The notes under the pieces are model-generated. The model made no database searches and was not told the DNA's origin. It worked only from the letters and a program-made list of their open reading frames with translations. The position numbers and the translations under genes are program-made. From assembly GCF_900289195.1 (NCBI RefSeq), contig NZ_OMOH01000003.1, forward strand, positions 337,099-369,098: a stretch of 32,000 nt of DNA, written 5' to 3'. Source of the DNA: Propionibacterium ruminifibrarum (GTDB taxonomy: Bacteria > Actinomycetota > Actinomycetes > Propionibacteriales > Propionibacteriaceae). Position 1 is the stretch's first letter, and every line of letters starts with the position of its first letter. Of this stretch, positions 5,179-27,225 are shown in pieces.

Positions 5179-5204
5179 CCGACTGTCGGATCGGCGAAGA
5201 AAGA

Positions 5205-5238: not shown

Positions 5239-5305
5239 TATATCCTGTAGGAACTAACCCTATGGTTCGGGCCGCTGGGCCCTCAACGATGAGCACAACC
5301 ATGAG

Positions 5306-7280: not shown

Positions 7281-7377
7281 TATATGATCTATGATGTGGC
7301 ATATCTGATCGACGATGACGTCCTGATCGGAGGGACATATGCACACGACGGATGCATGGCGCATCGGGTGCACGACA
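7281..7377 (+). repeat. copy A of duplicated promoter / 5'UTR / first-13-codon segment (copy B at 21557-21656)
   Basis: Identical 15-mer TATATGATCTATGAT (7281-7295 = 21557-21571). Also shared: ATGACGTCC (7315-7323 vs 21578-21586), TGATCGGA (7324-7331 vs 21596-21603), and ATG + 12 codons with 30/39 nt identical. Confidence 0.8.
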
Positions 7378-7533: not shown

Positions 7534-7620
7534 AGCGCCATGGCCTCGTTCACACCAGTCGCCGAAACGGGCGGCGGGTTCACCAAGTTTTAGTTCAGCT
7601 ATGTGACAAGGAGGTCCATC

Positions 7621-9000: not shown

Positions 9001-9035
9001 ATCATGGAGAATATCTGACAAGGAGGATTGGAAAG

Positions 9036-9818: not shown

Positions 9819-9892
9819 GTGGTATCTGGGTGGCGGGTCTTGCCTCAATAGTGCCCGCCACCCGGGGTACCTGAGAAACAGGAGGAGGGATC

Positions 9893-11101
9893 ATGACACT
9901 TCCGACGATCACGGATATCCGTGCTTATTTCATGGGCGGAGCGAGTTCTTCGAGTGGCGGCCAAGGAGGTGGTGATTATCACGATCAAGGATCTGGGCAC
10001 TGGATTGACGATCACATCGCCACTCCGATGAGCAAGTATCCGCAATACGAACAGTCTCGTCAATCATTTGGCATAAACGTGCTTGGTACGCTTGTGGTTG
10101 AGGTCGAGGCAAGTGATGGGACGATTGGGTTCGCTATTTCTACGGCGGGCTTGATAGGCTGTTTCATAGCCGAGCATCATCTATCCAGGTTCCTCATCGG
10201 TCGGCGCGTTGATGACATCAAATTGATTCACGATCAGATGACCAACGCCACGCATTTCTATTCCGGTGGTGGTGGCGTTGTCATCAACACGATCTCATGC
10301 ATCGACTTGGCGCTGTGGGATTTGTTCGGCAAGGTTGTGCAGCAGCCCGTGTACAGCCTGCTGGGCGGTGCGGTGCGAGATGAGATTCAGTTCTATGCTA
10401 CTGGTTCCCGTCCGGACTTGGCACGCGAGATGGGCTTCATTGGTGGCAAGATACCCACGCACTACGGACCGCATGACGGGGATGCGGGAATTCGGGCAGA
10501 GGTGGAGCGGGTCAAGAGGTTCAGGGGTCTGGTGGGGCCAGATTTCTGGCTCATGTTTGACTGCTGGATGAGTCAGGATGTCAATTATGCTGTCAAACTT
10601 GCCCATGCAGTGGCTCCGTTCGGCGTGAAGTGGCTGGAAGAATCGTTCCCGGCTGCGCAATATGAGAGTTATGCTGCTTTGAAACGGCAGATGCCACCAG
10701 GGATGATGGTCACCTCTGGTGAACACACTGGAAACCTTGTCGCGTTCCGAACGTTGAGTGAAACAGGTATCGACGTCCTGCAGCCTGATGTGGGATGGTG
10801 CGGTGGTCTCACCTCGCTCGTGGAGATCGCGGCGATTGCGAAATCAAAAGGGCAACTTGTGGTGCCGCACGGTTCCTCCGTCTACTCCCACCATGCCGTG
10901 ATCACGTTCGTGAACACTCCGTTCAGTGAATTTTTGATGACGAGCCCGGGTGCCGATGAGATCAGGCCCCAGTTCGATCCCCTCCTCGTCAATGAACCCG
11001 TTCCAGTTGACGGGCGGATCAGCAAAGCGGAACTCACGAAACCTGGCTTCGGAGTGGACCTCAATCGCGCATGCCCGCTTGAAAGGCCATTTGTGCACTG
11101 A
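9893..11101 (+). CDS. rhmD: L-rhamnonate dehydratase (enolase superfamily)
   Basis: GGAGGAGGG RBS. Near-collinear with my recollection of enterobacterial RhmD/YfaW: MTLP.I...[45 protein letters not shown]...[16 protein letters not shown]...MVTSGEH...[53 protein letters not shown]. Confidence 0.92.
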
Positions 11102-11103
11102 CC

Positions 11104-11949
11104 ATGGAGAAGCTGATGTCAACTGAAACGAGTCACGTTCCCCTTAACCGATTGAAAGAACGCCTTCGGGTTGGCGATGAACCTCAGCTGGGGTTGTGGC
11201 TGAGCAGTGGCTCACCGGCAATGACGGAGATCGCTGCGGGTGCTGATTTTGACTGGGGGCTCATCGACGGCGAGCACGGGCCCAACGGGATCGAAAGTCT
11301 CCTTGCCCAACTCCGTGCTATCGCTCCTCATCGAACGGCGCCGATTGTACGCCCCGCTGAGACGAGCCGGGTACTTATCAAGCAGATTCTCGACATTGGG
11401 GCACAGAACCTGCTGCTGCCGATGGTTGACTCCCGAGAAGACGCCGAGATGGCTGTCGCGAGTACTAGGTATCCGCCCCGGGGGACGAGGGGAGTGGGAG
11501 CGTCCATTGCCCGAGCAGGCCAGTGGGGCAGGATCAAGAATTACATGATGGAGACCGAAGATCAGCTCTGTGTGATTCTTCAAGTGGAAACTCGCGAGGG
11601 ACTGGCCCACCTTGATGAGATAGTGCAGGTTGAGGGTGTTGACGGTGTCTTCATCGGCCCTGCTGACCTCGGCGCCGCGCTGGGGAGTCCCCCCATCGAG
11701 GAGCTCAACTCCATCGTCTGCGAATGTCTGTCCAAGATCCGCAGGGCTGGTCTCATCGCGGGATCGATCGCGTTGGAGGAGGCCACGGCGCGCACTTACC
11801 TTGAAGCCGGGGCAAATCTTCTTGCGATTGCTTCTGACACTGATTTGCTTGTGCACTCCCTTGATGACTGCAAGAGCAGATTTGCCGATGTCACCACGAC
11901 TCGTGATTCACGTCGAGCTGGCTCAGGAAATAAAAGCGAGAAGGGCTGA
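11104..11949 (+). CDS. rhmA: 2-keto-3-deoxy-L-rhamnonate aldolase (HpcH/HpaI aldolase family)
   Basis: Starts 2 nt after the rhmD stop. LKERLR.G..Q.GLWLSS...DW.LIDGEH.PN...IKQ.LDIGAQ.LL.PMVD...TRYPP.G.RGVGAS.ARA..WGRI.NYM...VEGVDGVFIGPADL matches RhmA/YfaU as I recall it. Confidence 0.9.
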   Translation: MEKLMSTETSHVPLNRLKERLRVGDEPQLGLWLSSGSPAMTEIAAGADFDWGLIDGEHGPNGIESLLAQLRAIAPHRTAPIVRPAETSRVLIKQILDIGAQNLLLPMVDSREDAEMAVASTRYPPRGTRGVGASIARAGQWGRIKNYMMETEDQLCVILQVETREGLAHLDEIVQVEGVDGVFIGPADLGAALGSPPIEELNSIVCECLSKIRRAGLIAGSIALEEATARTYLEAGANLLAIASDTDLLVHSLDDCKSRFADVTTTRDSRRAGSGNKSEKG

Positions 11950-11973
11950 TGTGAATGCTGGGAAGAGCTACTA

Positions 11974-12783
11974 TCAGGTGTCCTGGGGGATCATTCGGCG
12001 TGAGACCATCGCCAGATGGTGGGTCATGGCATGTATGGCTGCAGCCTTGTCGCCTGAACGCACGGCATCGAAGATCGTCTGGTGTTCCCCGATCGCCGTG
12101 GGGGCATCGACCTTGCCCGTCCCACTCGTCTGCCGCATCAAATGAACGCTGAAACCCAAGGAGTTCACAGATCTGTTGATGTACCTGTTGCCGCAGTGAT
12201 TCAGGATCGTCTGGTGGAAGTCCCAGTCGCGATGGTAATAGTTCCAGATCGCCGCTCGGTCACTCATTGCGCCTTCCGCATCGAGCCTGTCTGCTGCTTC
12301 AATGTTGGCGGCAAAAGATGTTTCGAGGTCTGCGACCAGTCCTGGGAGATTTCTGCTCATCGCACGGTCGAGCGCGCTCGTCTCCATGATGAGCCTGGCC
12401 TCAATCAGCTCGGACATCTGCGCCGCTGACATCGGCGGGGCGACCCGATAACCGCGGTTCGCCATGCGCCGCACCAGTCCCGTGTCCTCGAGCCTGGCCA
12501 AGGCCTCCCTCACTGGTGTCTGCGACACCGCGAGATAGCGCGCCAGTCCATCGATCGTGAGCGGCGAGTTCGGTTCGAAGGACCCTGACGTGAGCATGTC
12601 CAGCAGAGCGTCGTAGACGTCGTCGCGTAATCCTCGCGGCCGGATGGGCCTCAGCTGGGGCATCTCTAGGTCGGGGCTGCTGCTCATGGGCCGGATCATA
12701 TCCAGCTGTTCAGGAACCAAGCTGTCTGCGCGCTGTGCCCGGACTGTTGCCCACGATTCCGCGCTGGCCAGAACCCAACTCAT
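11974..12783 (-). CDS. GntR family transcriptional regulator, FCD domain (paralog of 25311-26036)
   Basis: HTH LTIDGLARYLAVSQTPVREALARLEDTGLVRRMANRGYRVAPP. FCD part DWDFHQTILNHCGNRYINRSVNSLGFSVHLMRQT. Convergent with rhmA. By alignment with the paralog the true start may be ATG 12687 (MSSSPDLEM...). Confidence 0.85.
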   Translation of the reverse strand: MSWVLASAESWATVRAQRADSLVPEQLDMIRPMSSSPDLEMPQLRPIRPRGLRDDVYDALLDMLTSGSFEPNSPLTIDGLARYLAVSQTPVREALARLEDTGLVRRMANRGYRVAPPMSAAQMSELIEARLIMETSALDRAMSRNLPGLVADLETSFAANIEAADRLDAEGAMSDRAAIWNYYHRDWDFHQTILNHCGNRYINRSVNSLGFSVHLMRQTSGTGKVDAPTAIGEHQTIFDAVRSGDKAAAIHAMTHHLAMVSRRMIPQDT

Positions 12784-13135: not shown

Positions 13136-13972
13136 ATGGCGGGTACCCGCGAGGGGCACTCTTCCGGCCCCAGGGCCAGGCAGTACGCCATCGCTCAGGC
13201 GGTCATAGCCAAGGGCAAGGCGACCGTCGAGGAACTCGCCGATCTGACCGGCGTCTCCGCCATGACGATCTACCGCGACATCGCGGTGCTGGAGCAGAGC
13301 AACATCGTCCAACTCCACAACGGCACTGTCGTCGCGGTCGCAAGCGGCTTGCACGAGGCCGATGCGGTCTTCCGGCTGGAACAGGCCTCTGACGAGAAGC
13401 GACTCATCGCTGCCGAGGCCGCCACACTCGTCGCCAATGGTTCCTCGGTCATGCTCGACGACTCGAGTTCATCGGTCTGGCTGCTTCGTGCCCTGGCAGA
13501 TCTGTCATCGCTGACGATCGTCACGAACTCCCTGCTCGTCGCGGGCGAGGTCACCGAGAACCGCTTGGCGCAACTGATCATGACCGGCGGCGAGTACCGG
13601 GCCTGGGCCCACGCCCTGATGGGACCGACCACCGTGCAGAACATCACGGCGATGCACGCGGACTACTGCTTCCTTTCCACCTCCGGTATCTCGTCGATGG
13701 CCTGCTTCCACCCCTACCAAGAGGTGGCCGAGGTCAAGGCCGCCATGCTGCGCTCCAGCGAGGTACGGGTGCTGCTCATCGACAACAGCAAGTTCAACCG
13801 TCGTGCGTTGTTCAAGTTCGCCGAGCTGAGTGACTTCGACCACGTCATCGTCGACGACAAGGCGCCCGAGGCTGATCTCAGGCACCTCGAGGATGCCGGT
13901 GTTGCCGTTACCGTGGCCGCGTCCCGGGGGCGACGCGGCAGGCAGACGGCCGTTACCGCGCACCGCGGCTGA
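13136..13972 (+). CDS. DeoR/GlpR family transcriptional regulator
   Basis: GGAGGAGG RBS. N-terminal HTH RQYAIAQAVIAKGKATVEELADLTGVSAMTIYRDIAVLEQ. C-terminal DeoR-C sugar-phosphate sensor-like region (VMLDDSSS...IVTNS...LIDNSKF). Confidence 0.88.
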   Translation: MAGTREGHSSGPRARQYAIAQAVIAKGKATVEELADLTGVSAMTIYRDIAVLEQSNIVQLHNGTVVAVASGLHEADAVFRLEQASDEKRLIAAEAATLVANGSSVMLDDSSSSVWLLRALADLSSLTIVTNSLLVAGEVTENRLAQLIMTGGEYRAWAHALMGPTTVQNITAMHADYCFLSTSGISSMACFHPYQEVAEVKAAMLRSSEVRVLLIDNSKFNRRALFKFAELSDFDHVIVDDKAPEADLRHLEDAGVAVTVAASRGRRGRQTAVTAHRG

Positions 13973-13979
13973 TGGCAGA

Positions 13980-14010
13980 CGCCCCGAGGCCCTCACCGGG
14001 CCGGCGTTTC
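13980..14010 (+). terminator. weak terminator-like hairpin after deoR
   Basis: CGCC..GGCCC-tcacc-GGGCC-GGCG followed by TTTCCTCT. The stem is imperfect, with an asymmetric internal loop. Confidence 0.3.
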
Positions 14011-14582
14011 CTCTCGTCGTGACTCAATTTATGCGCCTCCCACAAGGCATTTAACATATATGATGATATTTGAAGCATTCTCAAAGGTGACATACCTCAG
14101 CCAAGCTGTTACTGTTCAGTCATGGAACAGGTCATGGCGGACCGCTCCGGGGGTGTGATGCTCGCCAGGGCGACAACTGGCGTACAGGGCGGCGTCTTCC
14201 CGGCAGTCAGGGCCAACGGGCTTCCGAGTGGCGATCGTTCGCTGAGAATTACCTTGCCAACAAGGATTTTAGGGTTGCCTGAGGTGCTCGGTCCGCGGTT
14301 CTCGTGTGCCGCCGCTGATGGGGGTGGGTTGAACTCGGAGTCATGGCCGGCCGTTGTTCCATGGGGCATGACGCCTCGTAACAGTATTTGTGATGATGGT
14401 ATCGCTGATGCTGTTAATGACGTGTTCTCGTGGGTGGGGCTCGTTACGCGCATCGCACTGCCCACCCCGGTAAGCACCCCGTGACGGATTCAGTCGGCGC
14501 GTCACACCTCACGTGGTGAGCCCGCGCCACGCCTGACACCGGGCGCAACCCTGTCCACCACTGAACGAACAAAGGAACAAGG

Positions 14583-15662
14583 ATGTTCACAACCTCCCTG
14601 GGGGTCTTCCTCTTCGGCCTGCTGGCCGCCATTGCCGGCGGAACCGTCGGCGCTGCGATCGGCGGCAACTACGCGTTCGTGCTCGTCGGTTTCTGCGTAC
14701 TCGCCTCATGGGGCATGTTCGCCGCCACCGGCAGCACCTTCGGCTTCGACTACCTGGCCTTCGGCCCCTTCATGGGGCCGCACATCGCCTTCGCAGGCGG
14801 CGTCGCGGCGGCCATCTACGCCCGCTACAAGGGACACTTCGATGACGGCAAGGACGTCAACTCCCCGCTGGCCGGCCTCGGCAAGCCCAGCGTCCTGATC
14901 GTCGGCGCCTGCTTCGGCGTCTTCGGCTACCTCTTGCAGATCGGTGTCAGCCACGTCCCGTGGTTCGGTTCCCACACCGACTCGGTCGCCTTCACCGTCC
15001 TGTGCTCCGGCCTGCTCGCTCGTATCGTCTTCGGCGGTGTTCCGGGCAAGGGCCTGTTCAAGGGATCGCTGCACAACCCCGAGGCCTTCCACGCCGACGC
15101 CACCAGCTTCCCGGCCAAGATCAAGCCCGGTCCCAACGGACGCTGGCTCGAGTGGCAGGAGAAGCCCTCGCAGCTCATCACCATCGGCTCGCTGTTCGGT
15201 GTCTTCGCGGGAGGCGCCGCGCTCTTCCTGGCCGCCAACGTCGGTGCCCATCTCACCGAGAAGGGTTTCGCCAACAACCTTGCGGCAGCGAACGCCAACA
15301 CCTTCGGTTTCGGCATCTCGGCCATCATCATCCTGTTCCTCATCACCAACCGGAACATGCCCGTTCAGCACCACGTGACGAACATCGCAGGCCTTGCCGC
15401 CGTCCAGTTCTTCCCCGTCCTCATGGGGGAGAGCTTCGCCACCTTCACCTGGACCGCCACCTCGGCCTGGGACTCGCACACCTGGTTGATGGCCTTCGTC
15501 GCGATCCTCATCGCGGGTTTCTTCGGTGTCGTCGCGGCAGCGCTCGGCGAGTTCGCCGCCCGCCTCTGGTACAACCGCGGTACGAGCCACATCGATCCTC
15601 CGGCCGCGTGCATCTGGATCAGCAACACCCTCGTCGTCTCACTGGCGGCGCTGCTGTCCTGA
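14583..15662 (+). CDS. uncharacterised polytopic integral membrane protein (about 10 hydrophobic segments), putative transporter
   Basis: AAAGGAACAAGG RBS before ATG 14583. High GC3. Gly/Ala/Phe-rich hydrophobic segments throughout. I recognise no family signature. First gene of the operon that continues into the HAD, FGGY, G1PDH-like and araB genes. Confidence 0.8.
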   Translation: MFTTSLGVFLFGLLAAIAGGTVGAAIGGNYAFVLVGFCVLASWGMFAATGSTFGFDYLAFGPFMGPHIAFAGGVAAAIYARYKGHFDDGKDVNSPLAGLGKPSVLIVGACFGVFGYLLQIGVSHVPWFGSHTDSVAFTVLCSGLLARIVFGGVPGKGLFKGSLHNPEAFHADATSFPAKIKPGPNGRWLEWQEKPSQLITIGSLFGVFAGGAALFLAANVGAHLTEKGFANNLAAANANTFGFGISAIIILFLITNRNMPVQHHVTNIAGLAAVQFFPVLMGESFATFTWTATSAWDSHTWLMAFVAILIAGFFGVVAAALGEFAARLWYNRGTSHIDPPAACIWISNTLVVSLAALLS

Positions 15663-15705
15663 GGGCCCGCGGCCCGATCGCCACGAAGGAAGAAGGGAAC
15701 CACGC

Positions 15706-16563
15706 ATGAGTCACGGTCTCGTGAGCAGCCCCACCGAGTTCGCCAGTGCCTACATCTTCGACCTCGACGGCACGATCTACCTCGGCAGCCAGCTGCTGCC
15801 CGGTGCCAAACGCTTGATCGAGGAATTGCGCCGACGCCGGATCCCGGTCCGCTTCCTGTCGAACAATCCCACCAGGGATCCCGACATGTACGTGAAGAAG
15901 CTGACCGGTCTGGGGCTGCCCACGGGGCTCGACGACATCTGCAACACCGTCGTGACCACCGTCCGCTGGCTCAAGCAGAACCACCCGGACGCCGTCCTGT
16001 TCCCGATCGCCGAGGAGCCCCTGTGCCGCGCCCTCACCGAGGCCGGCTTCGAGTTGAGCGATGACCCGTCCCGGATCGACATCGTCATCGCCTCCTACGA
16101 CCGCACCTTCGATTACCACAAACTCCAGGTCGCCTTCGACGCCATCTGGTTCCACAAACGGGCCATCCTCGTGCAGACCAACCCCGACCGCTTCTGCCCC
16201 TTCCCCGGCGGGCGCGGCGAGCCCGACTGCGCGGCCATCACCGCCGCCATCGAGGCCTGCACCGGTACCACGTGCCAGGTGAACTTCGGCAAGCCCTCGC
16301 CCGTGATGCTCACCGAGGCCCTGTCCGGCCTGGACGTCGACGTGGCCGACTGCGTCATGGTCGGTGATCGCCTCCAGACCGACATCCAGATGGCGCTCGA
16401 CGCCGGGATGAAATCGGCGTGCGTGCTCACCGGCGAGGCATCGCCGGCCGACATCGCCGCCCTCGACGAGGCCCACAGGCCCACCTACGTTCTCGACCGC
16501 GTCGACCGCCTCATCCCTGCCCGGTACTGGGGTGAACTCGGCTGGTCGGAGGACGACCTCTGA
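15706..16563 (+). CDS. HAD-IIA family sugar phosphatase (NagD/AraL-like)
   Basis: ATG 15706 follows a GAAGGAAGAAGGG RBS. The track ORF from 15526 overlaps the upstream gene and is Arg/Ser/Pro-rich junk. Motif I YIFDLDGTIY, FLSNNPT, GKP, VGDRLQTDI (motif IV). Confidence 0.88.
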   Translation: MSHGLVSSPTEFASAYIFDLDGTIYLGSQLLPGAKRLIEELRRRRIPVRFLSNNPTRDPDMYVKKLTGLGLPTGLDDICNTVVTTVRWLKQNHPDAVLFPIAEEPLCRALTEAGFELSDDPSRIDIVIASYDRTFDYHKLQVAFDAIWFHKRAILVQTNPDRFCPFPGGRGEPDCAAITAAIEACTGTTCQVNFGKPSPVMLTEALSGLDVDVADCVMVGDRLQTDIQMALDAGMKSACVLTGEASPADIAALDEAHRPTYVLDRVDRLIPARYWGELGWSEDDL

Positions 16564-16622
16564 AAACCGCAGGCTCCCAACGGGGGAGCGCTGCAAGTCA
16601 ACGTGCTCAAAGGAGAGTTCCC

Positions 16623-18182
16623 ATGACCGACAACGGCCCTTACGTGCTGGGTATCGACTACGGCACCGAGTCCTGCCGCGTGGCCATCTGCGATCTGCAA
16701 GGCCGCCCGATCACCTTCGCCGCCACGCCCTACAAGACCACTCACCCGCACCCGGGCTGGGCGGAGCAGAACCCGGAGGACTGGTGGAAGGCATTGCAGG
16801 CCTCCACTCACAAGGCCCTCGAGAGCTCGGGTATCCCGGCTTCCGCCATCGCCGGCATCTCCTACGACGCCACGACCTTGACGATGGTCGCCCTGGACGC
16901 CAGGGGTGTGGAGCTCCGCCCGGCCATCATGTGGATGGACGTGCGCGCCACCGAGCAGGCCGAACGGGCGAACTCGTCCGGGTCAGTGGCCCGTCTCTAC
17001 AACGGAGGTGGCCATTCCCCGGCGACGGCCGAGTGGTACCCCTTCAAGGCCGCCTGGTTGCGCGAGAACGAGCCCGAGACCTATGCCAAGGCAGCGCACC
17101 TGGTCGACGCGCCCGACTGGGTGACCTACAAGCTGACCGGCGAGTGGACCACCAACATCAACTCGGCCGCCATCCGCATGTACCACAACCGTGACAAGGG
17201 CGGCTGGCCGAAGGACTTCTACGAGACCATCGGCTGCGGAGACGTCTTCGACAAGATCCCCGAACGCGTCCTCGACCTGGGCGCCCCGGTCGGTGAGCTC
17301 GGCACCATCGCCGCCCAGCTGCTCGGCCTGCGTCCCGGTATCCCGGTCGCCCAGGGCATGGCCGACGCGTGGGCGGGCCAGATCGGTCTGGGCGTCCTGC
17401 AGCCCGGGCAGATGGCTCTCATCACCGGCTCCTCCCACGTCCTCACGGGCCAGTCGGACAAGGAGATCCATGGCGAGGGCTTCTTCGGCGCCTACACGGA
17501 CGGCGTCATGCCCGGCCAGTACACGGTCGAGGGCTCGCAGGTGTCCACCGGCTCGGTGCTCAAGTGGTTCCGCGACAATTTCGCCCGTGACGTCATCCAG
17601 GCGGCTGAGCGCGTCGGCCTCAACCCCTACGACGTGCTCAACGAGCAGTCAAGGAGCATCCGGCCCGGTTCGGACGGGCTCATCATCAATGAGTACTTCC
17701 AGGGCAACCGCACGCCGTACACGGACTCGAAGGCCCGTGGCATCGTCTGGGGTCTGTCGCTGGCCCACACCCCGGCTCACGTCTATCACGCGATTCAGGA
17801 GTCGGTCTGCTACGGGAATGCGCACAACCTGCGCGCCATGAAGGCCGCCGGTTTCGAGGTCAGCCGCATGGTGGCCTGCGGTGGCGCGACCAAGAGCCGT
17901 GACTGGATGCAGATGCACGCGGACGTCTCGGGCGTGCCGATCGCCCTGACCGAGGTCGGGGACGCGGTGGTGCTCGGAACCTGCATGCTTGCCGCGGTGG
18001 GTGCGGGGCTGTACAAGGATCTTCCCGAGGCGGCCGCCTCGATGGTCCACGAGATCGACGTCCTGGAGCCCGACCCCGAGCTGCACGAGGAATACGCGTT
18101 CTACGTGGACGCCTACTGCGACACGTACCCCAAGTTGCGGTCGATGATCCATGACATGGTGGACCACGAGGCGCAAAGGTGA
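16623..18182 (+). CDS. FGGY-family carbohydrate kinase (pentulose/polyol kinase type, substrate unknown)
   Basis: AAGGAG RBS. YVLGIDYGTESCRVAI...GWAEQNPEDWW (FGGY N-terminal). C-terminal GGATKSRDWMQMHADVSGVPI. 519 aa. Confidence 0.88.
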   Translation: MTDNGPYVLGIDYGTESCRVAICDLQGRPITFAATPYKTTHPHPGWAEQNPEDWWKALQASTHKALESSGIPASAIAGISYDATTLTMVALDARGVELRPAIMWMDVRATEQAERANSSGSVARLYNGGGHSPATAEWYPFKAAWLRENEPETYAKAAHLVDAPDWVTYKLTGEWTTNINSAAIRMYHNRDKGGWPKDFYETIGCGDVFDKIPERVLDLGAPVGELGTIAAQLLGLRPGIPVAQGMADAWAGQIGLGVLQPGQMALITGSSHVLTGQSDKEIHGEGFFGAYTDGVMPGQYTVEGSQVSTGSVLKWFRDNFARDVIQAAERVGLNPYDVLNEQSRSIRPGSDGLIINEYFQGNRTPYTDSKARGIVWGLSLAHTPAHVYHAIQESVCYGNAHNLRAMKAAGFEVSRMVACGGATKSRDWMQMHADVSGVPIALTEVGDAVVLGTCMLAAVGAGLYKDLPEAAASMVHEIDVLEPDPELHEEYAFYVDAYCDTYPKLRSMIHDMVDHEAQR

Positions 18183-18204
18183 GGAGTCTGGAGAGAAAGG
18201 GACA

Positions 18205-19566
18205 ATGATGTCAGATCTGATCGAGCAGGCACTGGCGAGCGCCGACGACACCGACAGGGTCGTGATGGGCGATGGGGTGCTCGCGGCGACGGGCCCCATG
18301 TTCAGGGAACTCTTCGGTCAGGCCAGGGGTGTCATCATCGCCGATGAGAACACCTGGGCGGCGGCCGGTGAGCAGGTGAGCGCATCGCTCAAGGACGCAG
18401 GCGTCGAACTCGCCGAGCCGTACGTCTTCCCGGGCAGCCCCAGCGTCTACGCCAAGTACGAGAACGTCGAGTTGCTGCGGGAATTCCTCGCGCCACTCGA
18501 TGCGAATGCCGTCGTCGTCGGCTCGGGGACGCTCAACGACCTCGTGAAGAGGGCCAGTGACGAGCTGGGGCGGCGTTATCTCGTCGTGTGCACCGCGGCG
18601 TCGATGGACGGCTATGCGGCGTTCGGCGCCTCGCTGTCGGTCGACGGGTTCAAGACGACGTTGACCTGCCGCGCGCCCCAGGGCCTCGTCGTCGACCTGC
18701 CGACCCTGGCAGCGGCGCCTCAGCGCTGCACCGCCACCGGCGTCGGCGATCTCATCGAGAAGATCCCAGCCGGAGCGGACTGGATCCTCGCCGATGAACT
18801 GGGCATCGAACCCATCGACCAGGGCTCCTGGGACCTGGCCCAGGGACGGTTGGAGGCCGCCATCAGCGACCCCCAGGGTCTGGTCGACCGTGAACCCGGC
18901 GCCTTCGTCGCCCTTGCCGAGGGATTGGTGCTCTCGGGCCTGTCGATGCAGAGATACCGCATCAGCTCCCGCCCGGCCTCCGGAGCCGGCCACCTCTTCT
19001 CACACGTCTGGGAGATGGAGCATCTTGGCATGGACGAGGACCCGCCGCTGACCCACGGCTTCAAGGTGGGGCTGGGCACGCTGGCCACCCTTGCGCTGTG
19101 GCAGAACGCCGTCGACCTCGACGTCTCGAGCATCGACACCGAGGAAGTCGTCGCCCGGTGGCGCAGCCGCGAGGACACCGAGGCCTTCGTGCGTTCCTGG
19201 TTCACCGGGAACATGGTGGAGCCGGCCGTCAAGCAGACACTCGACAAGTACCTCACCGCTGACGAACTGCGCGGACGCATCGAGCTGATCAAGGACAGGT
19301 GGCCCACGATCACGGAGCGGACCCGGGCGCAGATCATCCCGCCGGAACGGGCCGAGGCGATTCTCAAGCAGGTGGGGGCCTACTGGCACCCGCAGCAGAT
19401 CGGCCTGAGCCGTCAGCGCTTCCGGGACACCTATCTGCGCTGCCGCATGATCCGCAGCCGTTACACCCTGCCCGATGCCCTGTTCGAGCTCGGCGTGCTC
19501 GATGAACAGGTCGACCGATTGTTTGCGCCCGATGGCTTCTGGGGGCGGCGTCCCTGGGCCGAGTGA
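18205..19566 (+). CDS. sn-glycerol-1-phosphate dehydrogenase-like (AraM/EgsA family, iron-containing ADH superfamily) polyol-phosphate dehydrogenase
   Basis: ATG 18205 follows GAGAGAAAGGG. VVVGSGTLNDLVK...VCTAASMDGYAAFGAS...DGFKTT...GVGDLIEK...GHLFSHVWEMEH resembles the G1PDH nucleotide and metal-binding motifs. The track start 18151 overlaps the kinase gene. Confidence 0.75.
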   Translation: MMSDLIEQALASADDTDRVVMGDGVLAATGPMFRELFGQARGVIIADENTWAAAGEQVSASLKDAGVELAEPYVFPGSPSVYAKYENVELLREFLAPLDANAVVVGSGTLNDLVKRASDELGRRYLVVCTAASMDGYAAFGASLSVDGFKTTLTCRAPQGLVVDLPTLAAAPQRCTATGVGDLIEKIPAGADWILADELGIEPIDQGSWDLAQGRLEAAISDPQGLVDREPGAFVALAEGLVLSGLSMQRYRISSRPASGAGHLFSHVWEMEHLGMDEDPPLTHGFKVGLGTLATLALWQNAVDLDVSSIDTEEVVARWRSREDTEAFVRSWFTGNMVEPAVKQTLDKYLTADELRGRIELIKDRWPTITERTRAQIIPPERAEAILKQVGAYWHPQQIGLSRQRFRDTYLRCRMIRSRYTLPDALFELGVLDEQVDRLFAPDGFWGRRPWAE

Positions 19567-19685
19567 CTGGCACGCCGGGTGCCGGGCACGTCATCGGCGG
19601 GCCGGAGGGTCGATCCGCCCGGCCCGGTACCCGGATGACCGAGCAGCTCGGCAACCCTGCCCCTGTTTCTCGACGAGGAGGAAAC

Positions 19686-21353
19686 ATGACTGAGAAATAT
19701 GTAGTGGGACTGGATTTCGGTACCCTGTCCGGCCGAGCCGCCGTGGTTCGCGTCAGTGACGGTGAGATGGTCGGCACGGCGGTCTGCGAGTACCCGCATG
19801 CCGTGATGGACACGAGACTGACCGCGGCGAACGGGCAGGAACTGCCACCAGACTTCGCGCTGCAGGACCCGAGCGACTACCTCACCGCACTCTACGAGAC
19901 GGTCCCCGCGGCCGTGGCCGACTCGGGCGTCGAACCGGCCGACATCATCGGCGTGGGCCTGGACTTCACCTCGGCGACCGTCGTGGCAGCCACCGCCGAG
20001 GGCACCCCGGTGTGCGAGCTGCCGCAGTTCGCGGACAACCCGCACGCCTGGGTGAAGCTGTGGAAGCACCATGGTGCCGTCGAGCAGGCCCGGCGCATCG
20101 TCGATGTCGCCACTGAGCGAGGCGAGGAGTGGCTGAGCCGCTATGGCGGCGTGCTCAACTCCGAGATGCTGCTGCCCAAGGTCGCCGAGACCCTGGAGTG
20201 TGCTCCCGAGGTCTATGCGGCCACGGACGTCTTCTGCGAGGCCATGGACTGGCTCACCTGGCACCTGACCGGCCGGTTGACCTTCTCAGCGGGCTCGTCC
20301 GGCTACAAACGCATCCTCCAGGACGGCCGGTACCCGTCCAGGGACTTCCTGCGCCAGGTGAACCCGGGTCTGGAGAACGTCTACGACGAGAAGATGAACG
20401 CACCGGTCCTGCCCCTCGGCCACAACGTCGGTGGCCTGCTGCCGGAGGTGGCGTCCAGACTCGGGTTGCCGGCCGGCATCGCAGTGGCCAGCGGGAACAT
20501 CGACGCCCATGTCACCGGCCCGGCGGTGCAGGGCGTCGAGGACGGTGTCATGACGGCCATCATGGGAACGTCGGTCTGCTACCTGCTCTCATGGCCGACA
20601 CCTGCTCCGGTAGCCGGCATCTTCGGGATCGTCGATGGGGGGATCGTCGACGGCTCCTGGGGTTTCGAGGCGGGCCAGACCGCAGCCGGCGACATCTTCG
20701 CCTGGTTCGTCGACACCTGCGTCCCCGCCCGGTACCAGGCCGAGGCCGACGAGCTGGGCATCCCGGTGCACGAACTGCTCACCCGCAAGTGCGAGCATCA
20801 GCCGGTCGGCGCCCACGGACTGGTGGCCTTGGACTGGCACAACGGCAACCGCTCAACCCTCATGGACGCACAGTTGTCCGGCCTCATGCTGGGCACGAGT
20901 CTCACCACGACGCCCGAGGACCAGTATCGAGCCCTGCTCGAGTCCTGCGCCTTCGGGGCCAGGACGATCATCGAGGCCTTCGTCTCGGCGGGGATCGACA
21001 TCGAAGAACTCGTCGTGGCCGGCGGCCTGACCAGGAACCGCCTGTTCATGCAGATCCTTGCCGACGTCTGCCGTCGTCCCCTCTCGGTCGGTACCGCCGA
21101 GCAGCCCGGCGCCCTCGGCTCGGCCATCTTCGCCACCGTCGCGGCAGGGGAGTATCCCGATGTCAAGGCTGCTTCGGCTGCCATGGGGGCGAAGAAGGAG
21201 GGCGTCTACCTGCCCGACGAGGCCCGCGCGGATCAGTATGACCTGCTGTATGCGGAGTACAGCAGGCTGTACGACTACTTCGGCCGAGGCGGCAACGAGG
21301 TCATGCACCGGTTGAAGAGCCTCCGGGCGCAGGCCCGGGCAGCTTCTGCATAG
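19686..21353 (+). CDS. araB: L-ribulokinase (FGGY family, AraB type)
   Basis: GAGGAGG RBS before ATG 19686. YVVGLDFGTLSGRAAVVRVSDGEMVGTAVCEYPHAVMD...LPPDFALQDPSDY is the characteristic AraB N-terminus. C-terminal GGLTRNRLFMQILADV. The track start 19563 is an upstream extension without coding character. Confidence 0.88.
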   Translation: MTEKYVVGLDFGTLSGRAAVVRVSDGEMVGTAVCEYPHAVMDTRLTAANGQELPPDFALQDPSDYLTALYETVPAAVADSGVEPADIIGVGLDFTSATVVAATAEGTPVCELPQFADNPHAWVKLWKHHGAVEQARRIVDVATERGEEWLSRYGGVLNSEMLLPKVAETLECAPEVYAATDVFCEAMDWLTWHLTGRLTFSAGSSGYKRILQDGRYPSRDFLRQVNPGLENVYDEKMNAPVLPLGHNVGGLLPEVASRLGLPAGIAVASGNIDAHVTGPAVQGVEDGVMTAIMGTSVCYLLSWPTPAPVAGIFGIVDGGIVDGSWGFEAGQTAAGDIFAWFVDTCVPARYQAEADELGIPVHELLTRKCEHQPVGAHGLVALDWHNGNRSTLMDAQLSGLMLGTSLTTTPEDQYRALLESCAFGARTIIEAFVSAGIDIEELVVAGGLTRNRLFMQILADVCRRPLSVGTAEQPGALGSAIFATVAAGEYPDVKAASAAMGAKKEGVYLPDEARADQYDLLYAEYSRLYDYFGRGGNEVMHRLKSLRAQARAASA

Positions 21354-21395: not shown

Positions 21396-21426
21396 CTGGG
21401 CCCCCGTCATCAAGGCGGGGGCCCAG
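21396..21426 (+). terminator. hairpin terminator after araB
   Basis: CTGGGCCCCCG (21396-21406), loop TCATCAAGG, CGGGGGCCCAG (21416-21426). Perfect 11-bp stem, 43 nt after stop 21353. Confidence 0.55.
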
Positions 21427-21543: not shown

Positions 21544-21571
21544 TGGACAAATAGAATATATGATCTATGAT
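21544..21571 (+). promoter_or_regulatory. sigma-A type promoter candidate containing tandem TATGAT hexamers
   Basis: -35 TGGACA (21544-21549), 16-nt spacer, -10 TATGAT (21566-21571). The sequence TATGAT-C-TATGAT is repeated exactly at 7283-7295. Lies 47 nt upstream of ATG 21618. Confidence 0.45.
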
Positions 21572-21656
21572 CGTCTCATGACGTCCGACCAACGGTGATC
21601 GGACGGGAGAGGACCAGATGTACACGGCTGATGCATGGCCCATCGCCTGCAAGATG
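21557..21656 (+). repeat. copy B of duplicated promoter / 5'UTR / first-13-codon segment (copy A at 7281-7377)
   Basis: See copy A. Same block order, with indels between the blocks. Confidence 0.8.
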
Positions 21657-22553
21657 AACTTCGGACCACTCGCCGAGGACGGCACCCCCATCGCGGAGGC
21701 CCCGCTGGAGATCTGGCGGGATCAGCTCCTCCAAGTCGCCGAACTGGGGTTCAAGCACTTCGACCCCATGGACGACTGGATCCCCCTCGCCGACATCAGC
21801 GAGGAACGGTTCGCACAGTTCCAAGTGCTGCTCGACGAGACCGGCCTGGCCTGCCCGGCCATGTCGATCGGGCGGAACAGCGTCATCGATGCGGACAGGG
21901 GTGATGAGAACCTCGCGCTCGTGCACCGCACCATCGACAGGGCCTCGGCGCTCGGCGCCACCATCGTCAACATCGGCTTCCAGCAGGAGCTCACGGAGCC
22001 CCAGAAGGAGGCGTTGTGGTTCTGGCTGGCTGACGGGCACCACGATGACCCGGGGTTGTATGACCTCGCAGTGGAGCGGGTCAGGGAACTCGCTGACCAC
22101 GCCCAGCGTCTGGGCCTGCAGATCAGTCTGGAGATGTACGAGGACACGTTCATCGGCACCGTCGACGGTGCTCTGCAGTTCCACCATGACGTTGATCATC
22201 CTGCTGTCGGGATCAACCCCGACCTGGGAAACCTGATCAGGTTGCACCGGCCCATGCCGAAGGGTGAGGAGATGTACGAGAGACTTCTTCCGCTCTCGAA
22301 CTACTGGCACATCAAGAGCTACATCCGCGACGAGGATGACGTCACCGGTGCGTACATGTCAGCGCCCGTGCCGCTCAAGTACGGCGTCGTGAATTACCGA
22401 GCGGTGATCAGACGGGCAATCCAAGTGGGATATGACGGCCCCTTCATGACCGAACACTATGGCTCGGATTGGCTTGGGGTGGGCGCCGAGAACGCTGAAT
22501 ACATCAGGCAGGTCTTGAGGGGAGCCTTGCGCTCTTTCGGGCGTGACAAGTAG
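21618..22553 (+). CDS. sugar-phosphate isomerase/epimerase, xylose-isomerase-like TIM barrel (UlaE/SgbU/EryC-type fold)
   Basis: E-D-H-E ligand pattern: SLEMYED, GINPDLGN, YWHIKS, MTEHYG. 311 aa. Confidence 0.78.
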   Translation: MYTADAWPIACKMNFGPLAEDGTPIAEAPLEIWRDQLLQVAELGFKHFDPMDDWIPLADISEERFAQFQVLLDETGLACPAMSIGRNSVIDADRGDENLALVHRTIDRASALGATIVNIGFQQELTEPQKEALWFWLADGHHDDPGLYDLAVERVRELADHAQRLGLQISLEMYEDTFIGTVDGALQFHHDVDHPAVGINPDLGNLIRLHRPMPKGEEMYERLLPLSNYWHIKSYIRDEDDVTGAYMSAPVPLKYGVVNYRAVIRRAIQVGYDGPFMTEHYGSDWLGVGAENAEYIRQVLRGALRSFGRDK

Positions 22554-22801
22554 TTTCCATGAGGAATCTTTGCTGGGGTTCGATCGCGAGGCAACCCGGG
22601 TGGAGACGGGTTGAGGGGGAAGATCCATGAACGGGTGGCTGGCCTGACGCGCCGTTGGATTCTTGTCGGCAAGCCATCTTGGGTCTGGAGGGCGACGATG
22701 CCCACCAATTGAGTGATTGTGGCCGATGGTCACGGTGTGAAATCTTGGCGTGAGCCTTGGGTTGTGCCTCATTCGTGGGACGCAACAACTTCTATCGCTG
22801 T

Positions 22802-22820
22802 GGGCGCAGTTTTTGCGCCC
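22802..22820 (+). terminator. terminator-like hairpin 250 nt downstream of the isomerase gene
   Basis: GGGCGCA (22802-22808), loop GTTTT, TGCGCCC (22814-22820), followed by the T-rich ATTTCCCCTGTTGATTCTGTT. Confidence 0.45.
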
Positions 22821-22870
22821 ATTTCCCCTGTTGATTCTGTTCGTTCAAGTATGCAAACAAGGAGTTTTCG

Positions 22871-23878
22871 GTGAAGACAATCAATAGTGTAACCGTTGTC
22901 GGCGCAGGGTACATGGGCGGTGGCATCGCTCAGAGCTTGGCCCTGGCCGGTATGAAAGTCACTGTCGTCGACGGTGACCCCGAACTGACGAAGAAGCAGT
23001 TCGCCCGGCTGCTCTCCGAGGCTCAGGATTTTGAGGATCAAGGGCTCTACAAGCCGGGGAGTGTCGAAATCATCAAGGCGAATCTCGTCTGCGGCACAAC
23101 CATTGAGGAGGCGGTCGGTGACGCGGATTTCATCGAGGAGGCAGTTTTCGAGAGGCCGGATGTCAAGATGCCCGTTCTTGAACGGATCTCGACACATGCT
23201 CGTCCTGATGCCATCATCGGAACGAACACGTCGACCATTCCAGTGCACGTTCTGGCGCCGGCGGTTGACCATCCTGAACGGTTCATGACGGTGCACTTCT
23301 CCAACCCGGCGCCGTTCATTCCAGGGGTGGAGTTGGTCGTGGGTGAGGCGACGACCCCTGAGACCGTCGCCCTCGTCAAGGATGTGCTGAAGCGCTGTGG
23401 GCGGCAAGGGGCCCAAGTCGCCGACCGTCCCGGAATGGTCCTGAACCGTCTGCAATACGCCCTGCTCAAGGAGGCGACTGCGTGCGTCGAAGAAGGCGTT
23501 GCGACGCCCGAGGACGTTGATGTCATCGTACGGACAACCTTTGGCTTCCGCTTGGGCTTCTTCGGCCCCTTTGCCATTGCTGACCAGGCTGGTTTGGATG
23601 TCTATGCCAACTGCTTCAAGACCTTCGAGGAAGCCTATGGGTCCCGGCTTGCCACCCCGAAGATGCTCTCCGATGCGGTCGCTGCCGGCCGCCTGGGCGT
23701 CAAGAACGGCAAGGGAATCACCGGAGACTTCGATGACGAGACCAAGACAGCCCTGATCGCCTATCGCAACAAGGCGTACGCGCGCATGTCGGAGCTTCTC
23801 GCCGAACTCGGCCCCGCTCCCGAGGGAGTCAAGGTCGACGATCGGGATCAGTTCGAGGCGTTACATCCTCAGGAGTGA
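22871..23878 (+). CDS. 3-hydroxyacyl-CoA dehydrogenase family oxidoreductase (L-gulonate 3-dehydrogenase-like candidate)
   Basis: AAGGAG RBS before GTG 22871. Rossmann motif VTVVGAGYMGGGIAQ. HFSNPAP...PG.V.NR pattern of the HADH family. C-terminal dimerisation domain present. The stop overlaps the MFS start region. Confidence 0.8.
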   Translation: MKTINSVTVVGAGYMGGGIAQSLALAGMKVTVVDGDPELTKKQFARLLSEAQDFEDQGLYKPGSVEIIKANLVCGTTIEEAVGDADFIEEAVFERPDVKMPVLERISTHARPDAIIGTNTSTIPVHVLAPAVDHPERFMTVHFSNPAPFIPGVELVVGEATTPETVALVKDVLKRCGRQGAQVADRPGMVLNRLQYALLKEATACVEEGVATPEDVDVIVRTTFGFRLGFFGPFAIADQAGLDVYANCFKTFEEAYGSRLATPKMLSDAVAAGRLGVKNGKGITGDFDDETKTALIAYRNKAYARMSELLAELGPAPEGVKVDDRDQFEALHPQE

Positions 23879-23883
23879 TGATC

Positions 23884-25158
23884 ATGGAGTTCGAGAAGGC
23901 TCTGACACGCAAGATCACCTTGCGGATCATTCCGTTCGTCATGGTCCTGTACACGGCTGCCTACGTGGACCGCTCGGCAGTGGGTTTTGCTCAGCTGCAC
24001 ATGGAGACCGACATCGGTATCGACTCGGCCGCCTATGGCTTCGGTGCCGGCCTGTTCTTCTTGGCCTACTTCCTGTTCGAGGTGCCGAGTAACTGGGTCC
24101 TGCCGAAGGTGGGTCCCAGACGCTGGTTCGCGCGCATCCTCGTGACATGGGGACTGATCACTGCGTTGATGGCAGCCGCCCGAGGGCCTATTTCCTTTTA
24201 CATACTGCGCTTCCTGCTCGGGGCTGCCGAGGCTGGTTTCTATCCTGGGATTCTCTACTATCTCACCGAGTGGTACCCACAGCGCAACAGAACGAAGGCG
24301 ACGGGTGTTTTCGTCATGGCGGCGCCGCTGGCGTTCCTTATCATGAGCCCGTTGGCCGGCTGGCTGCTCGGCGTGACCGGTCTTGGCATGGTTGGTTGGC
24401 AGTGGCTGTTCGTCGTCGTGGGTGGCGTGGCCGTCCTGCTCGCGATCCCGACGTTGCGTCTCCTGCACGACAGCCCGCACGCCGCCCCGTGGATCACCGA
24501 AGAAGAAGCTGCCTGGATCGACGCCGAACTGGAGAAGGACAGGCAGGAACTCGGTCAGGCAGATCACAAGAACCCGTTCAAAGCCCTTCTGGACAAGAAT
24601 GTGCTCCTGTTCGCCGTGCTGTTCTTCCCCTCCACGGTGGGTGTTTACGGCCTGTCTTACTGGTTGCCGCAAGTGATCAGCAAGTTCTCGAGTAGCGACA
24701 TGAACACCGGCTTGCTTACGGCGGTGCCGTATATCTTCGCGCTGATCGGAATCTGGATCACATCGCGTTGGGCGGCACGATTCCGTGAGAACTGGATCCC
24801 GCTGGCCGTCATCTTCGCCGGGGCTGCAGTGGGTATCGGTGCTTCGGCCTTGGTCAGTTCACCGCTCGCTCAGCTGGCATGCCTGTCACTCGCGGCTTTC
24901 TGCTTGTACTCGATCGCCGGAGTCTTCTGGGCGCTGCCGACCCTGTACGTGATCGGGGCAACTGCGGCGGTCGGTATCGCGGCGATCAACAGCTTTGGCA
25001 ATCTGGGTGGTTTCGTCGGCCCCTATGTGGTGGGGCTCATTGCCCAGTCAACCGGGACGACGACGGCCGGCATGCTGTTCCTGTCCGTCGTCCTGTTCCT
25101 GGGGGCAGCAGGGACCATGGTGGCCAAGGCCGTCAAGGGCCGATCTTCCGGGCATTGA
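23884..25158 (+). CDS. MFS transporter, ACS family (third copy in window)
   Basis: AGGAG (23871-23875) lies 8 nt before ATG 23884. The track start is GTG 23875. TAAYVDRSAVGFA...AYFLFEVPSN...RFLLGAAEAGFYPG. Confidence 0.85.
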   Translation: MEFEKALTRKITLRIIPFVMVLYTAAYVDRSAVGFAQLHMETDIGIDSAAYGFGAGLFFLAYFLFEVPSNWVLPKVGPRRWFARILVTWGLITALMAAARGPISFYILRFLLGAAEAGFYPGILYYLTEWYPQRNRTKATGVFVMAAPLAFLIMSPLAGWLLGVTGLGMVGWQWLFVVVGGVAVLLAIPTLRLLHDSPHAAPWITEEEAAWIDAELEKDRQELGQADHKNPFKALLDKNVLLFAVLFFPSTVGVYGLSYWLPQVISKFSSSDMNTGLLTAVPYIFALIGIWITSRWAARFRENWIPLAVIFAGAAVGIGASALVSSPLAQLACLSLAAFCLYSIAGVFWALPTLYVIGATAAVGIAAINSFGNLGGFVGPYVVGLIAQSTGTTTAGMLFLSVVLFLGAAGTMVAKAVKGRSSGH

Positions 25159-25209
25159 CCGACGCGAGTGCATAGGGTCACCTGCGTACCGCAGATGATG
25201 ATGGCTGAG

Positions 25210-25236
25210 GCTGGGCCCGATCACGACGGGTCCAGC
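25210..25236. terminator. hairpin between convergent MFS and GntR genes
   Basis: GCTGGGCCCG (25210-25219), loop ATCACGA, CGGGTCCAGC (25227-25236). 10-bp stem with one G-U pair. Confidence 0.35.
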
Positions 25237-25310
25237 CCGGCCGTTTCGGCGGGGCAGTCCTCGGGTGGTTCCATCAGTCGGACGGCGGAATGGACGGTGT
25301 GTGACCCCAG

Positions 25311-27105: not shown

Positions 27106-27225
27106 ACGGTGAGTCTAGTGAGGCGGCTCGACAACCCAACCGCGGGCCGCTCATGCGGGCATCCCAATCGCGGGGCACACGGGTGAGAATGTCATCGCGC
27201 CCGATGCGGTGGAGTGGCCAGGGCG

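Follow-up and report, generated by a model that had tools for sequence, protein, structure and literature searches.

We examined a 32,000-nucleotide (nt) stretch of the Propionibacterium ruminifibrarum genome (contig NZ_OMOH01000003.1, positions 337,099 to 369,098; this whole stretch is called the window here) and found that the sugar genes at 13136-21353 are best explained as one DeoR-controlled operon, a local and reduced copy of a conserved actinobacterial cluster. We favor reading it as a polyol-to-pentulose-phosphate catabolic operon with a pentitol, either ribitol (adonitol) or L-arabitol, as first-choice substrate, and we put the chances of this reading at about even. The window has a G+C content of about 65%, and its closest relative is Propionibacterium australiense (dehydrogenase 93% identical). 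A first-pass annotation, made from the sequence letters, had described a co-directional array consisting of a DeoR regulator, a 610-nt leader, a membrane protein, a HAD-IIA phosphatase, an FGGY kinase of 519 amino acids (aa), an AraM-like dehydrogenase and AraB. All six named genes were present on the plus strand in that order, and the family assignment was reproduced for each. The array and the hairpin behind it are laid out as follows:

13136-13972, plus strand: DeoR-family transcriptional regulator (278 aa; Pfam DeoRC and HTH_DeoR)
13973-14582, plus strand: leader of 610 nt, presumed promoter/operator and long 5' untranslated stretch, with conserved AT-rich blocks
14583-15662, plus strand: DUF7973 polytopic membrane protein (359 aa; PF25928), presumed permease
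15706-16563, plus strand: HAD-IIA phosphatase of the NagD/AraL type (285 aa; TIGR01460)
16623-18182, plus strand: FGGY kinase 1 (519 aa; Pfam FGGY_N and FGGY_C)
18205-19566, plus strand: NAD(P) dehydrogenase resembling AraM and glycerol-1-phosphate dehydrogenase, G1PDH (453 aa; Pfam Fe-ADH_2)
19686-21353, plus strand: AraB-type L-ribulokinase (555 aa; NCBIfam ribulokinase equivalogs)
21396-21426, plus strand: terminator-like hairpin closing the operon (perfect 11-bp stem)

Three gene starts were re-set by ribosome-binding sites and homolog lengths: the HAD gene begins at ATG 15706 (285 aa; ribosome-binding site GAAGGAAG) rather than at an upstream GTG at 15526, the dehydrogenase gene at ATG 18205 (453 aa; homologs have about 452 aa) rather than at 18151, and araB at ATG 19686 (555 aa; ribosome-binding site GAGGAGG) rather than at GTG 19563. 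With these corrections the gaps after the leader are 43, 59, 22 and 119 nt in order, and the short spacing from 14583 onward that had been pointed out at first pass held up. So did the perfect hairpin, whose G+C-rich arms CTGGGCCCCCG and CGGGGGCCCAG form an 11-bp stem around a 9-nt loop; together with its flanks (87 nt) it folds at -51.7 kcal/mol (z = -4.3), and 0 of 200 shuffled sequences folded as well. It has no T tail, which is why a consensus terminator scan did not list it, and a sigma-70-like promoter for the next gene lies downstream of it at 21544-21571. A long G+C-rich hairpin (-59.9 kcal/mol) can also be drawn in the 119-nt gap between the dehydrogenase gene and araB (19567-19685), but it may be a mere effect of composition because its z-score is only -1.9.

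Evidence for a functional unit came from other genomes. We scanned one genome per species and found 404 that encode a relative of the dehydrogenase family; for the best 80 of these 404, the neighborhoods with 10-kb flanks were searched by tblastn with the window proteins and with the accessory proteins of relatives. Counts are for 58 full-flank species-level loci, which were anchored on the dehydrogenase and hence overstate its linkage compared with that of the other genes. The dominant order was RpiB–DUF7973–HAD–FGGY kinase 1–AraM-like dehydrogenase–AraB, often followed by AraD, transketolase or both. The HAD and FGGY kinase 1 genes were each found in 44 of the 58 loci, DUF7973 in 43 (linked to both), AraB in 40, RpiB in 37, an adjoining DeoR gene in 28, an AraD-like gene in 17 and transketolase, the last gene in many clusters, in 16. 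Carriers belong to the Propionibacteriales (Propionibacterium, Acidipropionibacterium, Cutibacterium including C. acnes, Arachnia, Tessaracoccus), the Actinomycetaceae (Actinomyces, Schaalia, Trueperella, Arcanobacterium, Varibaculum, Winkia, Mobiluncus, Flaviflexus) and the Micrococcales (Georgenia, Ruania, Beutenbergiaceae); among them are A. jensenii, P. freudenreichii, Schaalia turicensis and C. acnes, the last with a complete cluster. Judged by gene order, the array is no chance juxtaposition, because the identical order recurs in dozens of species. The earlier claim that AraB-, AraL- and AraM-like genes are linked here to a second FGGY kinase, a membrane protein and a DeoR regulator was thus borne out as a conserved association, and the order it described is kept in other genomes.

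The genes that accompany the cluster in relatives point to pentose phosphates. Their Aldolase_II gene encodes L-ribulose-5-phosphate 4-epimerase, AraD (342 bits against a cut-off of 251), and their RpiB reaches the actinobacterial ribose-5-phosphate isomerase model TIGR02133 (169.7 against 168.2) and falls below the model for D-erythrulose-4-phosphate isomerase, DerI (138 against 240). In tblastn at E <= 1e-5, E. coli AraA had no match in the window nor within about 10 kb at any of about 90 related loci; with the window included, AraB matches 76 sources of this set and AraD 29, and an AraA hidden nearby is thereby ruled out. The window itself has neither AraA nor AraD, as judged by tblastn with E. 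coli AraA, E. coli AraD and A. jensenii AraD and by Pfam on the large open reading frames (ORFs). The first-pass statement that araA and araD are missing therefore stood for the window, and for AraA well beyond it, but the lack of araD is specific to this lineage and relatives carry the gene. Because no AraA homolog occurs in about 90 loci, L-ribulose or L-ribulose 5-phosphate must have a source other than L-arabinose isomerization. By its gene content, the system appears to make L-ribulose 5-phosphate, xylulose 5-phosphate and ribose 5-phosphate for transketolase without ever being coupled to L-arabinose isomerase.

These data bear directly on the published annotation. The linkage itself has been known since 2015, when Loux et al. 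annotated the P. freudenreichii locus as a second, non-essential arabinose locus, 'araBML' (PMC4437456), whose araB is PFREUD_22370 (PMC2909200). The two loci are one and the same, each gene having its ortholog at 65-83% identity; the annotation was based on homology only and leaves the membrane protein, RpiB, transketolase and the wider conservation unmentioned (PMC4437456). The first-pass description of the system as conserved but undescribed thus needs dividing: the cluster is conserved and we found no functional study of it in the literature, but its linkage had already been annotated. On the arabinose interpretation, the kinases would be spare ribulokinases accompanied by counterparts of the AraL and AraM that are non-essential in the Bacillus ara operon, and the three families are indeed those of B. 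subtilis araB, araL and araM. We nevertheless consider it highly improbable: the AraA that accompanies araB and araD in a Bacillus-type L-arabinose operon is missing from the window and from about 90 loci, the cluster comes with a regulator and a membrane protein of its own, FGGY kinase 1 is no AraB, and the locus is present in 21 of 21 P. freudenreichii strains regardless of arabinose use, with a canonical araABD elsewhere (PMC4437456).

The two kinases could be placed with different precision. AraB is by family score a bona fide ribulokinase, passing both PRK04123 (689.5 against 428) and TIGR01234 (643.5 against 583), and has 31% identity to E. coli AraB across 544 aa. FGGY kinase 1, which is 29% identical to AraB of the same operon, matched both Pfam FGGY_N and FGGY_C; its NCBIfam scores were 280 for XylB (cut-off 380), 276 for PRK04123, 244 for pentulose kinase, 222 for TIGR01234 (cut-off 583) and 35 for rhamnulokinase, and its best PDB matches were 3gg4 and 3qdk. 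These scores place it in the XylB/AraB/pentulose-kinase region of the family. EryA groups with RhaB, FucK and LyxK in the FGGY phylogeny (PMC3245297), and an EryA-type erythritol kinase was ruled out by this phylogeny together with the family scores.

The HAD protein carries motif I (DLDGT) at residues 19-23 of its 285 aa and passes TIGR01460 (104.2 against a cut-off of 100.15), falling below the cut-offs for PGP_euk (135) and YutF-like TIGR01457 (133). In the PDB its best matches are Geobacillus NPPase, YutF and NagD, and next comes the M. tuberculosis glycerol-3-phosphate phosphatase 4i9f (82 bits). We also considered that the HAD protein and the dehydrogenase might repair AraD side-products such as glycolaldehyde phosphate and set this idea aside, its one point in favor being the weak PGP-family similarity of the HAD protein.

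The dehydrogenase matches Pfam Fe-ADH_2 (PF13685) with 108.8 bits, and a search with the family profile gave E = 9e-52 for B. subtilis AraM (9h4x) and about 1e-27 for archaeal G1PDHs. The AlphaFold2 model (pLDDT 90.3) gave the same picture: Foldseek placed AraM 9h4x first (TM-score 0.72/0.81), before glycerol dehydrogenases and archaeal G1PDH (0.58/0.78 for the M. jannaschii enzyme), so that AraM, to which the protein had been likened at first pass, is its closest solved relative. In an alignment of 14 homologs used for motif analysis, D135, H263/H267 and H284 are invariant and align with the metal-ligand positions of AraM and G1PDH, and the motifs SRPASG and RxRYT (here RSRYT) of the G1PDH/AraM clade are conserved, which we take as a hint of a phosphorylated route. 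Unlike G1PDH and AraM, in which the first motif continues as SRPASG[SG]EH, all 14 members read SRPASGAGH, with an invariant Gly in place of the Glu before the metal-binding His. On sequence and model we class the enzyme as AraM-like, and we did not file it as a G1PDH. Besides this Gly, the reasons are its length, about 100 aa more than in archaeal G1PDH (and about 60 aa more than in AraM), and its score of 135 on the G1PDH equivalog NF002022, whose cut-off is 413 bits; the match covers residues 36-317 of the 471-aa ORF.

The same evidence could instead be read as a genuine sn-glycerol-1-phosphate (G1P) dehydrogenase working with a HAD-type G1P phosphatase, which would convert dihydroxyacetone phosphate to G1P and on to glycerol as an NADH sink on reduced substrates, or would supply G1P for the envelope, the pair being mere companions of pentulose genes, in the way of Bacillus araL and araM. 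The structural closeness to AraM, the conserved ligand positions and motifs, and the glycerol-phosphate phosphatase among the HAD-IIA relatives all speak for it. So do the genomes in which the pentulose cluster exists without the dehydrogenase and those in which stand-alone Luteococcus copies of the dehydrogenase lie near GT2, GtrA and EamA envelope genes. We still regard this explanation as unlikely. The low equivalog score, the extra length and the Gly substitution count against it, and no G1P-consuming enzyme is linked to the dehydrogenase gene. Moreover, the HAD gene goes with FGGY kinase 1 and DUF7973, not with the dehydrogenase: Micropruina has a smaller unit of only dehydrogenase–AraB–AraD with no HAD. 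Another small unit, RpiB–HAD–FGGY kinase 1–dehydrogenase, occurs in Ruania, and both are consistent with one kinase and one dehydrogenase as the working unit.

The membrane protein is 99% identical to a protein (P0001) from a Propionibacteriaceae metagenome-assembled genome. The local copy of Pfam lacked the PF25928 model and gave no direct match to the window protein; among 388 DUF7973 homologs found, the precomputed PF25928 assignment is on P0001 and on all 120 listed, and it is also on the corresponding gene of the A. jensenii, P. freudenreichii, Schaalia and C. acnes loci. The AlphaFold2 model (pLDDT 90.4) has about 10 long helices, with invariant polar residues (D133, H263, H264, R332, H336 and D338-P-P) at helix ends. 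When the model was compared by Foldseek with the PDB, nothing was found at E <= 0.001 (best E 9.6e-3, TM-score 0.16-0.30), which led us to reject a known transporter or enzyme fold. Uptake appears to be the simplest role for this protein because it is the sole membrane protein of the cluster in most genomes; the Schaalia locus has no other transporter.

Together, these observations establish the gene families with their order and conservation, the absence of AraA, and what AraB, AraD, RpiB and transketolase are. They fit a route in which we infer every function that goes further than family membership, namely the substrate, the order of the steps and the roles of the HAD and DUF7973 proteins. 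The DUF7973 protein would import the polyol, and the two FGGY kinases with the single oxidoreductase would yield D- and L-ribulose 5-phosphate. In the order we favor, the kinase would act first and the dehydrogenase would then oxidize the polyol phosphate, a mirror image of GlpK/GlpD and EryA/EryB; alternatively, the free polyol would be oxidized and the ketose then phosphorylated. AraD and RpiB would convert the products to xylulose 5-phosphate and ribose 5-phosphate, the two transketolase substrates. The HAD phosphatase, always linked to FGGY kinase 1, would drain excess polyol phosphate, and DeoR would probably sense a phosphorylated intermediate. We prefer a pentitol to erythritol because the accessory RpiB, L-ribulose-5-phosphate 4-epimerase and transketolase indicate entry into the pentose-phosphate pathway. 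The growth record is in line with this: 21 of 21 P. freudenreichii strains, all of which carry the locus, ferment adonitol and erythritol by pathways that have not been reconstructed, 2 of 21 ferment xylitol, and no strain ferments D-arabitol, sorbitol, mannitol or dulcitol (PMC4437456).

Several points argue for the kinase-first order. The motifs of the G1PDH clade are retained in the dehydrogenase; Ruania, Georgenia and some Actinomyces have FAD dehydrogenases of the GlpD/EryB kind next to the cluster; a GlpP-like antiterminator is found in the C. acnes locus; and E. coli AraB phosphorylates ribitol preparatively to ribitol 5-phosphate, while no native ribitol kinase is known (bioRxiv 10.64898/2026.07.27.741123). 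A dedicated phosphatase would also be more sensible against a non-central polyol phosphate than against ribulose or xylulose 5-phosphate. The sequence proposed at first pass (polyol to polyol phosphate to ketose phosphate, the phosphatase serving as a safety valve and the membrane protein for import) is compatible with all this; its broader label of a polyol/pentulose system also fits, but the accessory genes narrow it from generic polyols to pentitols and the pentose-phosphate pathway. A fuller version of the idea would be a kinase-first phosphorylated pentitol pathway with native FGGY polyol kinases, AraM/G1PDH-like oxidation, a HAD relief valve and DUF7973 as a new family of polyol permeases without a solved fold relative, B. 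subtilis AraL and AraM then being remnants of the same pentitol/L-ribulose chemistry and not purely ether-lipid enzymes. We advance this version tentatively and consider it rather unlikely. We also tried a 'phosphate shuttle', in which a kinase, the dehydrogenase acting to a ketose 1-phosphate, the HAD phosphatase and AraB follow one another; it uses every gene, but it costs 2 ATP and is contradicted by working sub-clusters without HAD (Micropruina) or AraB (Ruania), and we consider it remote.

The pentitol reading also has to accommodate a number of points that weigh against it. An enzyme of the G1PDH type oxidizes the carbon adjacent to the phosphate ester. This regiochemistry would predict a ketose 1-phosphate, whereas AraD and RpiB need a 5-phosphate, and it is the reason the free-polyol order is kept as a possibility. 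The dehydrogenase gene is separable from the cluster: Luteococcus (L086, 8001-13055; L090, 6477-16297) has DeoR–RpiB–DUF7973–HAD–FGGY kinase 1–AraB–AraD–transketolase without it and carries the gene elsewhere, between ftsY and the GT2/EamA/DUF6020 envelope genes with GtrA near, which suggests that the AraM-like enzyme may have a second, housekeeping role. In several Propionibacteriaceae the gene is solitary or adjoins that of a XylB-like kinase. A reduced form of the cluster, lacking rpiB, araD and the transketolase gene, is what the window shares with P. australiense and P. acidifaciens. FGGY kinase 1 falls below every NCBIfam equivalog cut-off, the presence of a dedicated phosphatase in a catabolic operon is explained only as a valve, and DUF7973 resembles no known transporter in the Foldseek comparison with the PDB; the His, Asp and Arg residues that never vary in it might just as well belong to an enzyme. 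Finally, we found no expression, genetic or enzymatic data for any cluster gene in the literature we searched.

Erythritol is the other polyol that all the P. freudenreichii strains ferment, and a second sugar module lies upstream of the operon at 16-7018 of the window, 6-13 kb away. It comprises the following genes:

16-294: truncated RpiB-type isomerase (the window begins inside it), with 40% identity to the cluster-type RpiB
310-1080: TIM paralog
1251-1982, minus strand: GntR regulator
2138-3469: MFS transporter
3499-4320: AP_endonuc_2 protein
4324-5178: PGDH_C-type NAD dehydrogenase
5306-7018: fused Dak1-Dak2 kinase

This module is relevant to a tetritol (erythritol/threitol) route through the focal operon, in which FGGY kinase 1 would form D-erythritol 4-phosphate, the G1PDH-like enzyme would oxidize it to L-erythrulose 1-phosphate, and TIM-like and RpiB isomerases would lead to erythrose 4-phosphate for transketolase. 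Reasoning from known structures, the configuration next to the phosphate in sn-G1P would be that of D-erythritol 4-phosphate, as GlpD corresponds to EryB. P. freudenreichii, A. jensenii, Trueperella and Georgenia have genes for Dak, a TIM paralog and a second RpiB beside the cluster, in the window such genes lie upstream, and the cluster includes a transketolase. Erythritol fermentation by every P. freudenreichii strain has no assigned pathway (PMC4437456), and L-erythrulose 1-phosphate is a reported intermediate in P. pentosaceum (PMC4437456, PMC10733421). Even so, we judge the tetritol route through the focal operon to be improbable. FGGY kinase 1 is not EryA-like, scoring far better on XylB than on rhamnulokinase; the cluster RpiB is of the ribose-5-phosphate isomerase type and below the DerI cut-off; AraB and AraD, both bona fide enzymes of L-ribulose metabolism, have no place in a C4 route; and the neighboring dehydrogenase–Dak–TIM–RpiB module alone would give a complete route like that of M. 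smegmatis. We regard the upstream module as the erythritol candidate because it matches the M. smegmatis Dak-kinase route and the L-erythrulose 1-phosphate chemistry of P. pentosaceum. It probably handles tetritols and accounts for erythritol, which would leave ribitol or L-arabitol for the focal operon.

The regulator and the leader offer further detail on the pentitol operon. The DeoR protein matches Pfam DeoRC (150.5 bits) and HTH_DeoR (36.3 bits) and reaches no NCBIfam equivalog cut-off, its best scores being 148 for GlpR-halo and 133 for SrlR. Cluster regulators vary by lineage and may be DeoR, SorC, LacI or a GlpP-like protein. The leader occupies the position at which rpiB sits in most relatives, and a decayed rpiB was ruled out there, since neither tblastn (E <= 100) nor blastn found a remnant; an Rfam search at E <= 1 gave no match in the 610 nt, which led us to reject a riboswitch or other RNA element, and the 120-aa ORFs inside the leader matched no Pfam family. 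In alignment with P. australiense and P. acidifaciens it has only short AT-rich blocks in common (about 14040-14115: TTTAACA…GATGAT…GGTGACAT…AGCTGTTACTGTTC), which we read as a putative promoter and operator. The AT-rich motif ATATATGAT, allowing at most one mismatch, occurs 8 times in the window against 0.63 expected; three different sugar operons account for 7 of the 8 copies, which are in their promoter regions (7280-7309, 14053-14064 and 21556-21571), and the eighth is at 10176-10184. It could represent a shared -10 region or a common operator.

Further genes were noted around the operon and around its C. acnes counterpart. Between the upstream module and the operon, 7603-12783 encodes an MFS transporter, an SDR, an MR/MLE (enolase-superfamily) dehydratase and an HpcH/HpaI aldolase with a divergent GntR/FCD regulator; it looks like a non-phosphorylative acid-sugar or deoxy-sugar pathway and has a G+C content of 55-60%, below the rest of the window. 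Directly 3' of the operon, 21618-26036 encodes an AP_endonuc_2 TIM barrel with weak similarity to L-ribulose-5-phosphate 3-epimerase models (39 bits), a 3-hydroxyacyl-CoA-dehydrogenase-type enzyme, a D-galactonate-family MFS transporter and a GntR regulator, genes that are found at this position only in the P. australiense/acidifaciens lineage. Further on, at 26143-31207, a PFL-like glycyl radical enzyme (27839-30043) and its radical-SAM activase (30344-31207) are accompanied by a BadF/BcrA-type ATPase on the minus strand (26143-27105). The C. acnes-type contig (L092, 1-16527) has different neighbors: 5' of the cluster are a split FGGY gene, a 2-hydroxyacid dehydrogenase, two Aldolase_II genes and a GlpP-like 'G3P antiterminator', and 3' of it are a transketolase, a SorC-type regulator and GpsA.

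Hundreds of Actinomycete species have this cluster, among them C. acnes, the dairy propionibacteria and oral or urogenital Actinomyces, Schaalia, Trueperella, Varibaculum and Mobiluncus. The ability to ferment adonitol and erythritol has classically served to identify these bacteria, yet the genes behind it are unassigned, and an answer for this operon would probably bring with it the ribitol pathway that is missing so far. It would also test the existence of a native ribitol kinase and of a G1PDH-type polyol-phosphate dehydrogenase, and would give DUF7973 its first function.

Compared with known polyol systems, the operon resembles several in part. The Brucella/Rhizobium erythritol locus encodes EryA, an FGGY kinase, EryB, a GlpD-like polyol-phosphate dehydrogenase, the isomerases EryC, EryH and EryI, and the repressor EryD. 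It shares with the logic favored here an FGGY kinase that makes a polyol phosphate, a glycerol-phosphate-dehydrogenase homolog, isomerases leading to the pentose-phosphate pathway and a sugar-phosphate-sensing repressor. The dehydrogenase of our operon, however, is of the NAD(P) type with a G1PDH fold whereas EryB is of the FAD-dependent GlpD type, the window operon has neither an EryA-type kinase nor a GlpD-like gene, and the accessory enzymes, including the relatives' RpiB with its low DerI score, are for pentoses and not tetroses. The Klebsiella rbt/dal operons and the Sinorhizobium meliloti erythritol/adonitol/L-arabitol locus are alike in having two FGGY pentulose kinases with polyol dehydrogenases, and in placing tetritol and pentitol genes side by side. 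They differ in that SDR or MDR dehydrogenases act on free polyols and ABC or MFS transporters are used, and none has a G1PDH-like enzyme, a HAD phosphatase or DUF7973. The M. smegmatis tetritol pathways (Huang et al. 2015, cited in PMC10733421) use EltD, the Dak-type kinase LerK, LerI and DerI; they resemble the neighboring module (4324-5178, 5306-7018, 310-1080 and 16-294) and are unlike the focal operon, which has no Dak-type or TIM-type gene.

The linkage has a parallel in the ara operon of B. subtilis (araABDLMNPQ-abfA), in which AraL is a HAD-IIA sugar phosphatase and AraM a Ni2+-dependent G1P dehydrogenase. The actinobacterial cluster lacks AraA, the AraNPQ ABC transporter and AbfA, it adds an FGGY kinase, DUF7973, RpiB, transketolase and DeoR, and its dehydrogenase is about 60 aa longer than AraM with Gly for the Glu before the metal-binding His. 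Nonetheless, both systems link the AraB, AraL and AraM families, often with AraD, for a reason that is unexplained in either. Solving the operon would thus provide a testable reason for AraL- and AraM-like genes traveling with araB in two phyla, a question that dates back to the sequencing of the Bacillus ara operon.

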